Assembly (NCBI RefSeq): GCF_055900595.2
Contig: NZ_CM148325.1
DNA: 64,000 bases
Direction: 5' to 3' (one strand)
The notes beneath the pieces are model-generated. The model was not told the origin of the DNA, did not search any database, and saw only the letters and a program-made list of their open reading frames with translations. Shown here one piece after another: positions 16,247 through 25,552 of this stretch (its first letter is position 1; each line of letters opens with the position of its first letter). Both the position numbers and the translations under genes were made by a program.

Positions 16247-18904
16247 GTGACTTTCTTTGATTTCTGGGGAAAAACCCGACGTGGCGAGAAAGAGGGTGGC
16301 GACGATTATCACCTTCTTTGCTGGCATTCGCTGGATGTAGCCGCGATAGGCTATTTAATGGTCAAAAACAACTGTTTCGGGCTGGCTGACTATTTTCGTC
16401 AATTAGGTTTCGCTGACACGGATCAGGCAGCACAATTTTTCGCCTGGTTGTTGTGCTGGCACGATACTGGAAAATTTGCCCGCTCATTTCAGCAACTTTA
16501 CCTGCACCCACAACTCAAGGTTCCGGAAGGCGCAAGAAAGAATTACGAAAAGATCTCTCATTCAACGCTGGGTTACTGGTTGTGGCATCATTATTTAATT
16601 GAATGTGAAGAGTTGCTTCCTTCATCTTCACTCTCTTTGCGCAAACTTAAACGGGTAATAGATATGTGGATGCCCGTGACGACCGGGCATCATGGTCGGC
16701 CTCCTGACCGTATCGATGAACTGGACAACTTTCTGCCTGAAGACAAAGCTGCCGCACGAGATTTTCTCCTTGCAATCAAGTCACTGTTTCCGCTCATAGA
16801 GATCCCCACATTCTGGGATGATGACGAGGGCGTTGAACTTATAAAACATCTTTCCTGGTATATATCTGCAACCGTCGTACTCGCAGACTGGACGGGATCG
16901 TCAACGCGGTTTTTTCCACGCGTCGCACATGTAATGGATATTAAAGATTACTGGCAGAATGCTTTAGCTCAGGCTCAAAACGCATTAACCGTCTTTCCTC
17001 CAAAAGCAGAAACCGCACCTTTCACTGGAATTAACACGCTGTTTCCTTTTATTGAGAACCCAACACCGTTACAGCAAAAGGTGCTGGATCTGGATATCAG
17101 CCAGCCAGAACCGCAGTTGTTTATTCTGGAAGATGTGACTGGCGCAGGTAAAACAGAAGCGGCGCTTATCCTGGCGCACAGGTTGATGTCTGCGGGTAAC
17201 GCTCAGGGGCTGTTTTTTGGTTTGCCGACAATGGCAACGGCCAATGCCATGTACGATAGGCTGGTCAAAACCTGGCTTGCTTTCTATTCGCCGGAATCCC
17301 GCCCCAGCCTGGTGCTGGCACACAGCGCTCGTTCGCTAATGGATCGCTTTAACGCATCGCTGTGGTCTGGTGATTTTGTGGGGTCAGAAGAACCGGATGA
17401 ACAAGCGTTCAGTCAGGGATGTGCGGCCTGGTTTGCTGGCAGTAACAAGAAGGCGTTGCTGGCTGAAATTGGCGTCGGCACGCTGGATCAGGCGATGATG
17501 GCGGTGATGCCGTTCAAACATAATAATCTGCGGCTTCTGGGGCTGAGTAACAAAATCCTGCTAGCCGATGAGATCCACGCCTGTGACGCTTATATGTCGT
17601 GCATTCTTGAAGGGCTGATCGAGCGGCAGGCGCGTGGCGGAAACAGCGTTATTTTGCTTTCTGCTACGTTGTCTCAACAGCAGCGTGACAAACTCGTCGC
17701 CGCCTTTGCGCGTGGTGCAGAGGGCCAGCAAGAAGCTCCGTTGCTGGAAAAAGATGATTATCCCTGGCTGACGCATGTCACGAAATCCGATGTGCATTCG
17801 CACCGGGTAGCGACGCGCAAAGACGTTGAGCGCAGCGTGAGTGTGGGTTGGCTTCATAGCGAACAAGAGTGTATTGCGCGTATCGAATCGGCGGTAAGTC
17901 AGGGGAAATGCATCGCCTGGATTCGGAATTCTGTCGATGACGCCATCCAGGTTCATCGTCAGCTGCTTGCCCGCGGCGTCATTCCTGCTTCCAGCCTTTC
18001 ACTTTTTCATAGCCGCTTTGCTTTTAGCGATCGCCAGCGAATTGAAACGGAGACGCTGGCACGCTTTGGTAAAGAAGACTGTTCACAGCGTGCCGGAAAA
18101 GTCCTCATTTGTACTCAGGTCCTGGAGCAGAGCGTCGACTGCGACCTGGACGAAATGATTTCCGACCTTGCCCCTGTTGATTTACTGATCCAGCGAGCAG
18201 GGCGATTACAGCGACATATCCGCGATATTAATGGTCAGTTAAAGCGTGACGGTAAAGACGAGCGTCACCCTCCTGTATTGCTGATTCTGGCCCCCGTCTG
18301 GGACGACTCTCCGGGTGAAGAATGGTTTGCCAGTGCCATGCGTAACAGTGCATTTGTCTATCCCGATCATGGGCGAATCTGGTTGACGCAGCGTGTGCTG
18401 CGTGAACAAGGCGCGATTCAGATGCCACACTCAGCCCGGCTTCTGATTGAATCAGTCTACGGTGAGGACGTGGTAATGCCGGAAGGGTTTGCCCGCAGCG
18501 AGCAGGAGCAAGTGGGCAAATACTACTGCGATCGTTCAATGGCTAATAAGTTTGTGCTGAACTTCAGGCCCGGCTATGCCGCCAATATCAACGATTACCT
18601 TCCGGAAAAACTGTCGACACGTCTGGCTGAGGAGTCTGTTTCCTTGTGGTTGGCTACCTGTATTGACGGTGTGGTGAAGCCTTATGCCACTGGCGCTCAC
18701 GCATGGGAAATGAGCGTTGTCAGAGCGCGCCAAAGCTGGTGGAAAAAACATCGGGATGAGTTTTCTTTACTGGAAGGGGATGCGTTCAGGCAGTGGTGCG
18801 TTGAACAGCGGCAAGATCCGGAGATGGTAAATGTGATTTTAGTTACCGATGACGAAAGTTGCGGGTATTCGGCTACGGAGGGATTGATTGGCAAGGTTGG
18901 TTGA
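16247..18904 (+). CDS. cas3: Cas3 HD-nuclease/helicase, type I-E
   Basis: 885 aa, GTG start after an AAGGA SD; N-terminal HD-like motif (HLLCWHSLDVAA) then helicase-sized body; directly upstream of cse1. Confidence 0.9.
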   Translation: MTFFDFWGKTRRGEKEGGDDYHLLCWHSLDVAAIGYLMVKNNCFGLADYFRQLGFADTDQAAQFFAWLLCWHDTGKFARSFQQLYLHPQLKVPEGARKNYEKISHSTLGYWLWHHYLIECEELLPSSSLSLRKLKRVIDMWMPVTTGHHGRPPDRIDELDNFLPEDKAAARDFLLAIKSLFPLIEIPTFWDDDEGVELIKHLSWYISATVVLADWTGSSTRFFPRVAHVMDIKDYWQNALAQAQNALTVFPPKAETAPFTGINTLFPFIENPTPLQQKVLDLDISQPEPQLFILEDVTGAGKTEAALILAHRLMSAGNAQGLFFGLPTMATANAMYDRLVKTWLAFYSPESRPSLVLAHSARSLMDRFNASLWSGDFVGSEEPDEQAFSQGCAAWFAGSNKKALLAEIGVGTLDQAMMAVMPFKHNNLRLLGLSNKILLADEIHACDAYMSCILEGLIERQARGGNSVILLSATLSQQQRDKLVAAFARGAEGQQEAPLLEKDDYPWLTHVTKSDVHSHRVATRKDVERSVSVGWLHSEQECIARIESAVSQGKCIAWIRNSVDDAIQVHRQLLARGVIPASSLSLFHSRFAFSDRQRIETETLARFGKEDCSQRAGKVLICTQVLEQSVDCDLDEMISDLAPVDLLIQRAGRLQRHIRDINGQLKRDGKDERHPPVLLILAPVWDDSPGEEWFASAMRNSAFVYPDHGRIWLTQRVLREQGAIQMPHSARLLIESVYGEDVVMPEGFARSEQEQVGKYYCDRSMANKFVLNFRPGYAANINDYLPEKLSTRLAEESVSLWLATCIDGVVKPYATGAHAWEMSVVRARQSWWKKHRDEFSLLEGDAFRQWCVEQRQDPEMVNVILVTDDESCGYSATEGLIGKVG

Positions 18905-19001
18905 GATGCCTGCGACAGGATTCTCTGAATAGTTGATACACAAAAAAGGATGGAAGGATGGATAACCGACCTGGGATGGTCTTTTTTACGAGAGGATGCG
19001 T

Positions 19002-24766: not shown

Positions 24767-24851
24767 GTTACCCGTTCTTTAAAAATAAGGAAATGTTTGA
24801 ATTTAGTTGGTAGATTGTTGATGTGGAATAAAATTGTTTAAAAACAGATAC
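24767..24851 (+). promoter_or_regulatory. CRISPR leader (AT-rich; expected to carry the pre-crRNA promoter)
   Basis: 85-bp AT-rich segment between the cas2 stop and the first repeat; leader-adjacent-to-cas2 layout as in type I-E. Confidence 0.6.
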
Positions 24852-25552
24852 GTATGCTTAGTGTGTTCCCCGCGCTAGCGGGGATAAACCGGTAATAAAT
24901 TCTTTGTGCGCGAAGAAATGAAGGTGTTCCCCGCGCTAGCGGGGATAAACCACGTGGCAACAATATTCCGCTGCTTTAACGCAAGTGTTCCCCGCGCTAG
25001 CGGGGATAAACCGGCGGCGATCATCTTTGACGCCGACCTGTTTCGGTGTTCCCCGCGCTAGCGGGGATAAACCGCGCTACCACAGGTCGCTACCGCATGG
25101 GCTTCAGTGTTCCCCGCGCTAGCGGGGATAAACCGCGGTCATATTGCGCCTGCACAGACTCACTGCGGTGTTCCCCGCGCTAGCGGGGATAAACCGGGGC
25201 AGGGAAATCACGGGCACGGTGACGATATGTGTTCCCCGCGCTAGCGGGGATAAACCGCCAAAACCATGACGTTCTCACTATCGGATGTGGTGTTCCCCGC
25301 GCTAGCGGGGATAAACCGTGGCCACCGGCAAAGAAAAAACGGAGTTCTGGCGTGTTCCCCGCGCCAGCGGGGATAAACCGGAAACTGTACTTGATGCGCT
25401 GAAAGCGATGGGGTGTTCCCCGCGCCAGCGGGGATAAACCGATGGCCCAGGGATTTGTTCAGTCCAGCGTGCCGTGTTCCCCGCGCCAGCGGGGATAAAC
25501 CGCTCTCGGTTCTGGGGTACTGTTACCCATAACTGAGCTCCCCCGCGTCAGC
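24852..25552 (+). CRISPR. Type I-E CRISPR array: 11 full repeats plus one degenerate terminal repeat, 11 spacers
   Basis: 29-nt repeat GTGTTCCCCGCGC[T/C]AGCGGGGATAAACCG at 61-bp period, starting 24852, 24913, 24974, 25035, 25096, 25157, 25218, 25279, 25341, 25402, 25463; degenerate repeat gagctcccccgcgtcagcggggaactc from about 25524. Spacers are 32 nt (one is 33). Confidence 0.95.

Follow-up and report, generated by a model that had tools for sequence, protein, structure and literature searches.

An apparently complete type I-E CRISPR-Cas system of the cas-E1 variant on an Escherichia coli chromosome

The described systems closest to the locus analysed here are two type I-E CRISPR-Cas systems of Escherichia coli: that is, the cas-E1/L1 (leader-A)/CRISPR-A system, as in O157:H7 and many ECOR strains (PMC3737337, PMC3903273), and the cas-E2 system of K-12 (Cascade, PDB 4TVX/5H9F; Cas1-Cas2, 3NKD, 4P6I). 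The CRISPR-A duplicon and leader-A arrays were defined by Diez-Villasenor et al. 2013 (PMC3737337), and the cas3 primers cas3E1-R and cas3E2-R are those of Almendros et al. 2014 (PMC3903273). We analysed a stretch of 64,000 nucleotides of contig NZ_CM148325.1 (assembly GCF_055900595.2; hereafter, the window), in which eight cas genes and a CRISPR array occupy positions 16247-25564 of the plus strand. The window is E. coli chromosome, with flanks 95-100% identical to all 5,425 matching complete genomes, and a homologous locus is present in more than 5,300 E. coli genomes. We conclude, with high confidence and from comparison of sequences, that the locus encodes, on the chromosome of E. coli, a type I-E CRISPR-Cas system that is genetically complete, belongs to the cas-E1/leader-A (L1)/CRISPR-A variant, and lies at the CRISPR-I site. 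The locus is already known: it represents the textbook type I-E system of E. coli, in a variant that has been described.

The locus agrees with the cas-E1 system in site, in gene order, in its GTGTT-type 29-nt repeat, in its cas3E1 primer site, in its leader, in a protospacer-adjacent motif (PAM) that is predominantly ATG, which reads CAT on the target strand, with some AAG, and in a conserved terminal spacer followed by a degenerate repeat; identical proteins and identical sets of 11 spacers are public. Nothing categorical differs from the described cas-E1 system. The differences from cas-E1 relatives are at the level of the strain: a C-to-T change in the hairpin loop of the first eight repeats, an intact cas3, one missing internal spacer unit, and two additional units at the leader end. 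With the K-12 system the locus shares subtype, gene order and site, a 29-nt repeat with 32-nt spacers, a CRISPR-I leader and terminal repeat that are homologous to those of the window, and Cas1 and Cas2 proteins that are 85% and 86% identical. In contrast, identity to the K-12 counterparts is only 29% for Cas3, 23% for Cse1 and 32% for Cas7, CasE is barely detectable, the repeat differs at position 2 (GAGTT in K-12, GTGTT here), the PAMs observed here are mostly ATG and not AAG, and the gap between cas3 and cse1 is 91 bp here but 414 bp in K-12, where it carries Pcas. Comparison of the 91-bp gap with the K-12 Pcas region gave no convincing homology.

The assignment to the cas-E1 variant follows from three lines of evidence. 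All 11 canonical repeats begin with GTGTT, corresponding to the CRISPR-A duplicon (...AACAC in the orientation of PMC3737337). A site for cas3E1-R is present at 16286-16305 with 2 mismatches, and no site for cas3E2-R was found at up to 4 mismatches. The pattern of identity to K-12, low for Cas3 and Cascade and high for Cas1 and Cas2, points the same way. The cas-E2 (K-12) variant was considered and is ruled out by the divergence of Cas3, Cse1 and Cas7, by the GTGTT repeat, and by the 91-bp, non-homologous cas3-cse1 gap. As to the site, the gene order in the window is ygcE...cysJIH, hok/sok, cas3...cas2, CRISPR, iap, cysDNC, ...rpoS, mutS, hyp/hyc, asc; judged by these neighbours, with cysH-hok/sok on one side and iap on the other, the locus occupies the canonical CRISPR-I site.

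The cas genes were identified by comparing each of the eight proteins with the curated type I-E profile models of NCBIfam and their cut-offs. The genes and the gap that follows the first of them are:

16247-18904, plus strand: cas3, 885 aa, GTG start, with HD nuclease and superfamily 2 (SF2) helicase, cas-E1 variant.
18905-18995, plus strand: gap between cas3 and cse1, 91 bp, 45% GC.
18996-20564, plus strand: cse1/casA (Cas8e), large Cascade subunit, 522 aa; an alternative start at 19002, in the style of the Prokaryotic Genome Annotation Pipeline, gives 520 aa.
20561-21097, plus strand: cse2/casB (Cas11e), small Cascade subunit; TIGR02548, 102 bits.
21112-22167, plus strand: cas7e/casC, Cascade backbone; TIGR01869, 442.6 bits, profile positions 1-325 of 325.
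22178-22924, plus strand: cas5e/casD; TIGR01868, 160 bits.
22906-23556, plus strand: cas6e/casE, endoribonuclease for the CRISPR RNA precursor, 216 aa; TIGR01907, 276.5 bits.
23553-24476, plus strand: cas1e, integrase; TIGR03638, 382 bits.
24473-24766, plus strand: cas2e; TIGR01873, 133 bits.

All eight proteins score above the cut-offs of NCBIfam type I-E models with essentially full-length coverage, Cas3 by way of two domain models, and the profile E-values span 1e-29 to 1e-181. The names that a preliminary description had given to the eight genes from the sequence are thereby confirmed one by one, as is the type I-E order on one strand, cas3-cse1-cse2-cas7-cas5-cas6e-cas1-cas2. For Cas3, the two models are TIGR01587 (helicase, cas3_core), at 210.8 bits against a cut-off of 102, and TIGR01596 (HD, cas3_HD), at 86.6 bits against a cut-off of 43; against the equivalog for full-length Cas3, PRK09694, the protein stays below the cut-off, and its identity to K-12 Cas3 is the 29% given above. 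Its closest solved relatives are type I-E Cas3 structures from other organisms (PDB 4Q2C; 4QQW, 6C66; E=1.5e-78, for 4Q2C, and 4e-63), which match residues 6-772 and leave about 110 C-terminal residues unaligned. The HD, GHHG, ADW, GAGKT (Walker A), DEIH, SAT and QRAGR motifs all align with those of solved Cas3 and K-12 Cas3. Cse1 matches TIGR02547 with 602 bits over profile positions 1-504 of 504, and is annotated as 520 aa in relatives. Cas6e gives a weak match to K-12 CasE (E=9e-10) in which the catalytic His is aligned; the gene starts at 22906, and the mechanical open reading frame start at 22768 is not its start. In Cas1 the active-site Glu, His and two Asp align with those of K-12 Cas1 (PDB 3NKD). 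Precomputed Pfam assignments agree throughout (Cas3_HD, CRISPR_Cse1 (PF09481), CRISPR_Cse2 (PF09485), Cas_CT1975, Cas_Cas5d, CRISPR_assoc, Cas_Cas1 and Cas_Cas2CT1978); they were taken from genes of the same length in a related public genome, with identity of sequence verified for Cse1 only.

From 16247 to 24766 the plus strand carries eight consecutive open reading frames with zero internal stops, each of a length divisible by 3. The expectation that the components would be free of frameshifts and intact is thus borne out at the level of sequence, with the catalytic motifs kept. The genes had also been described as translationally coupled, which needs correcting, as overlaps are present at only four of the seven junctions: 19 nt at cas5/cas6e, and 4 nt each at cse1/cse2 (as ATGA), cas6e/cas1 and cas1/cas2. 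At the other three the genes are apart, with the 91-bp gap between cas3 and cse1, 14 bp between cse2 and cas7, and 10 bp between cas7 and cas5.

The elements that flank the genes, and the array itself, are:

16009-16246, plus strand: AT-rich region between hok and cas3, 29% GC, presumed to contain the promoter of cas3 or the cas operon.
24767-24862, plus strand: leader, from the cas2 stop to repeat 1, 96 bp, 28% GC.
24863-25564, plus strand: CRISPR array, with 11 canonical 29-nt repeats, 11 spacers and one degenerate terminal repeat.

The leader, AT-rich as first described, is 96 bp long rather than 85 bp, has the same sequence as that of E. coli 2013C-4282, and contains a promoter-like TTGGTA-16-TAAAAT at 24807-24834; a sigma-70-like TTGTGA-16-TATTAT lies upstream of cas3 at 16089-16116. 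Both sites are matches to a consensus only. In the array, the repeat GTGTTCCCCGCGCYAGCGGGGATAAACCG at up to 1 mismatch is present in 11 copies, with 0 expected from 100 shuffles. The array had been described as one of 12 repeats with a period of 61 bp, ending at 25552. Twelve copies are indeed present, of which 11 are canonical and the 12th is degenerate (GAGCTCCCCCGCGTCAGCGGGGAACTCCC, 25535-25564); the spacing is 61 nt, with a single interval of 62; and the array ends at about 25564. The degenerate terminal repeat and the sequence after it are homologous to their counterparts in the CRISPR-I array of K-12. The count of repeats bears out the count of 11 spacers, of which 10 are 32 nt and one, spacer 8 (S8), is 33 nt. 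Tandem Repeats Finder did not report the array, since spacers interrupt its identity; both a repeat search and a pattern search detected it. A search of the whole window with Rfam at the gathering threshold returned sok RNA only, and nothing over the array.

The repeats are not uniform. Position 14, in the hairpin loop, is T in the eight leader-proximal repeats (repeats 1-8) and C in repeats 9-11; both forms have the same predicted fold, with a 7-bp stem and a 4-nt loop (-15.2 kcal/mol). A mutation that arose in the first repeat and was recopied at every later insertion would leave T14 restricted to the leader-proximal repeats, as observed. Repeat 2 differs in its last base (24952), which is A and not G.

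Protospacers were sought with the array and with a concatenate of the spacers only, against INPHARED phages, PLSDB plasmids and complete E. coli genomes, and were identified for 7 of the 11 spacers:

24892-24923, plus strand: spacer 1 (S1, newest), 32/32 to SSU5/pHCM2-like phage-plasmids, in a DUF4942 methylase-like gene; PAM ATG.
24953-24984, plus strand: spacer 2 (S2), 30/32 to a P2-like prophage of E. coli 99RCEF, in a DUF2586 gene; flank TGA.
25014-25045, plus strand: spacer 3 (S3), 31/32 (mismatch at position 12) to a prophage of E. coli STEC379, in a DUF4054 gene; PAM ATG.
25197-25228, plus strand: spacer 6 (S6), 29/32 (mismatches at 12, 18 and 24) to the baseplate J gene of the 99RCEF P2-like prophage; PAM ATG.
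25319-25351, plus strand: spacer 8 (S8, 33 nt), perfect to virB8 of 31-kb E. coli plasmids with a type IV secretion system (pGF47-C and 3 others); PAM ATG.
25381-25412, plus strand: spacer 9 (S9), 27/32 to a DUF1627 gene of lambdoid/Shiga toxin phages (e.g. Shigella phage POCJ13); PAM ATG.
25503-25534, plus strand: spacer 11 (S11, oldest), 28/32 (mismatches at 1, 17, 22 and 24) to SSU5-like phage-plasmids; PAM AAG.

The matches of S1 and S8 extend beyond the spacer, to 33/33 and 34/34, with the terminal G of the repeat, which for S1 is the PAM-derived base. Perfect matches to S1 occur in phages Cyrano, CMS-2020a and PhiR41_1 and in about 135 PLSDB plasmids; among complete E. coli genomes there were 171 matches to plasmids, and most of these are to S1. 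Two pairs of spacers fall on related elements: S2 and S6 on the same strand of the same 99RCEF prophage, 5.8 kb apart, and S1 and S11 on opposite strands of SSU5-like phage-plasmids, 4.8 kb apart. For S6, the better match to the E. coli P2-like prophage took the place of an earlier candidate in Pasteurella phage F108 (27 nt, E=0.4). The array had been described as a record of past encounters; 7 of its 11 spacers match mobile elements. S10 and S11 are also present in arrays of other E. coli lineages; S10 was found only in arrays of O157:H7 and O55:H7 strains, at 29/30.

The sequences that flank the protospacers lend confidence to the weaker of these matches. The PAM is ATG for five of the seven protospacers, AAG for one (S11), and ATG slipped by 1 nt for one (S2), such that the motif AWG is found at all seven, with a chance of about 3% for ATG or AAG at any one site. 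This matters most for S9, which is weak by BLAST alone (E=5) and to which the PAM adds support. The S2 protospacer is preceded by ATGA (5998-6033 of the compared 99RCEF stretch); from this flank, S2 looks like an acquisition slipped by 1 nt next to an ATG PAM, which would account for the final A of repeat 2. The observed set of PAMs fits the published motif of leader-A arrays, a CAT-dominant CWT, with 34 CAT and 9 CTT among 55 protospacers (PMC3737337). For S3 and S9, the ATG of the PAM is also the start codon of the target gene (DUF4054, 5999-6001, and DUF1627, 299-301, of the respective compared stretches). The mismatches of S6 with its protospacer (11840-11871 of the compared 99RCEF stretch) are the three at spacer positions 12, 18 and 24. 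Every sixth position is not base-paired in type I-E Cascade; the spacing in S6 may simply reflect third positions of codons, and its occurrence by chance is estimated at about 1 in 8.

From what is established for the type I-E family, the locus would operate as follows. The array would be transcribed from the leader on the plus strand, and Cas6e would cut each repeat at the base of the 7-bp hairpin to yield 61-nt CRISPR RNAs (crRNAs). Cse1, Cse2, Cas7, Cas5 and Cas6e would assemble on a crRNA as Cascade, which would locate protospacers with 5'-AWG (ATG/AAG) and form a PAM-dependent R-loop, and Cas3, with its HD nuclease and helicase, would be recruited by Cascade and degrade the target. Cas1-Cas2 would insert 32-nt spacers, together with the PAM-derived last base of the repeat, at the junction of leader and repeat.

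Comparison with public genomes places the locus among close relatives. The exact sequences of Cas3, Cas6e (216 aa) and Cas1 are present in public E. coli records, Cas3 on 194 contigs, and eight complete genomes share the array, five with all 11 spacers and three with eight of them. In the two inspected, Z0117EC0005 and E400634 (compared loci NZ_CP098223.1 and NZ_CM128600.1, respectively), both with all 11 spacers, IS421 (1337 bp) is inserted just downstream of hok, at window positions 16019-16030, with a 12-bp target duplication, GGGGTAAAACCC. The cas3 gene of E400634 has a clean internal deletion of 1462 bp, corresponding to window 17013-18474, with no obvious direct repeat at the junction. 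Apart from IS421, the cas3 deletion and one extra spacer between S6 and S7 (CGCTGATCTCAGGGATTAGATGTCCTGCCTGC, 9839-9899 of the compared stretch), the E400634 locus is 100% identical to that of the window, which has neither the IS421 insertion nor the cas3 deletion. In AP027848.1, cas3 is broken and S7 is missing. AP025754.1 carries an identical, intact 885-aa Cas3 and spacers S3-S11, with a different spacer between S6 and S7 (TGCGCGGAGCGGAGATTGTAAATATCAAAATC, 12115-12175 of the compared stretch), and is without S1 and S2.

That AP025754.1 lacks exactly S1 and S2 while encoding the same Cas3 indicates that both were acquired recently. Together with the restriction of T14 to the leader-proximal repeats, this bears out the claim, made at the outset from the order of the array, that leader-proximal spacers are the newest. 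The different extra spacers between S6 and S7 in the relatives suggest different internal deletions from a longer ancestral array (window 25197-25289). On these alignments, the simplest reading would be a gain of two units at the leader end, sporadic internal losses, and repeated loss of cas3; by the same comparison, the window copy is, as far as sequence tells, an intact member of a decaying lineage. None of the genomes searched carries both the array and a replicon with the S1 protospacer (198 records in 198 genomes), and replicons bearing the S1 or the S8 protospacer are absent from all eight complete genomes that share the array. The idea that cas3-deleted relatives harbour the phage-plasmid targeted by S1 is unsupported, there being no genome with both.

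Four sets of observations weigh against the conclusion given above. The type I-E system of K-12 is reported to be transcriptionally silent through H-NS (PMC12248084, PMC4782391). Promoter-like sites are no commoner in the scanned region than in shuffled sequence. Four spacers (S4, S5, S7 and S10) gave no protospacer among the phages of INPHARED, the plasmids of PLSDB and the complete genomes of E. coli, and nothing in IMG/VR when every sixth position was left free. Finally, cas3 has been lost in several of the closest relatives, such that the system appears dispensable and prone to decay in this lineage. Given the AT-rich region upstream of cas3, the locus may be repressed by H-NS in laboratory conditions as in K-12. 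The cas3-cse1 gap is short, unlike the Pcas region of K-12, so that regulation in K-12 is not simply transferable and regulation here may differ. A system intact in sequence, and at the same time under permanent repression or disabled by changes of missense or regulatory kind, would be a silent relic whose spacers are fossils and give no present immunity. The silence described for K-12, the 29% GC upstream of cas3, the closest relatives with IS421 and the 1462-bp deletion or with a broken cas3, and the divergence by 4-5 nt of the old spacers S9 and S11 from known targets all fit such a relic. Set against them are the intact open reading frames and catalytic motifs, the absence of the two newest spacers from a close relative with the same Cas3, which implies recent acquisition, and the perfect matches of S1 and S8, with functional PAMs, to elements still in circulation; the absence of S1 and S8 replicons from the array-sharing genomes says little on an intact system, as these genomes are cas3-deleted where examined. 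On balance we consider a relic unlikely, although it is the strongest of the alternatives.

Still less likely, in our estimate, is the opposite view: that the system is naturally active in this lineage, in live conflict with mobile elements. It would draw on the lack of S1 and S2 in a sister genome with the same Cas3, on the perfect, PAM-proficient match of S1 to widespread SSU5-like phage-plasmids, on the repeated inactivation of cas3 in sister strains (IS421 and the 1462-bp deletion), and on the paired spacers per element (S2 and S6 for the P2-like prophage, S1 and S11 for the phage-plasmid), which would fit primed adaptation in the wild. Primed adaptation by type I-E systems usually shows a strand bias. 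For S1 and S11, with protospacers on opposite strands, the fit to that bias is poor, and we set priming aside for this pair as speculation. A role other than defence, with the array serving mainly to target self or to regulate chromosomal genes or resident prophages, is highly improbable. Three or four spacers (S2, S3, S6 and S9) do match prophage genes in other E. coli chromosomes, but those prophages are carried by other strains, the targeted elements are mobile ones of typical kinds and have proper PAMs, and no spacer matches elsewhere in the 64-kb window at up to 7 mismatches; the best hit, of S9 at 36855, has 8 mismatches and is attributed to chance. We give no credence to chance features or an assembly artefact as the source of the repeats and reading frames, in view of the 11 repeats against 0 in 100 shuffles, the profile E-values, and the presence of an identical locus in independent public assemblies.

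As identical proteins and near-identical arrays are already in public genomes, the locus has little weight beyond annotation. Its value lies at the level of the strain: the copy is intact, while cas3 is gone from most of the sequenced relatives in its lineage, and its spacers name past invaders, namely SSU5-like phage-plasmids, prophages of P2-like and lambdoid type, and a small plasmid with a type IV secretion system. The differences among the arrays of relatives could help in sub-typing, or could illustrate on a small natural scale how spacers are gained and lost. If the system were naturally active, it would provide a natural example of type I-E activity and loss in E. coli, and would bear on whether the system acts in nature.

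The surroundings of the locus yielded several further observations. Between cysH and cas3 lies a hok/sok type I toxin-antitoxin module, with the Rfam sok RNA at 15715-15871 (103 bits) and a 50-aa Hok/Gef open reading frame that ends at 16008; hok/sok is known to adjoin CRISPR-I in E. coli. At its left edge the window begins inside ygcE, and the second E. coli type I-E array (CRISPR-II, between ygcE and queE) would presumably sit just beyond it. At about 36650-37300 of the window, an IS200/IS605 tnpA between rpoS and a MarR-family gene, which E400634 carries at this interval (3021-4408 of the compared stretch), appears to be absent, the interval being about 710 bp shorter than in E400634. Genes for hydroxyarylic acid decarboxylase are also present between rpoS and mutS. 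The nlpD open reading frame (34449-35588) contains a 24-nt tandem repeat (3.2 copies, 34644-34719; consensus CAGCAACCGCAAATTCAGCCAGTA) that encodes a Gln/Pro (Q/P)-rich repeat.

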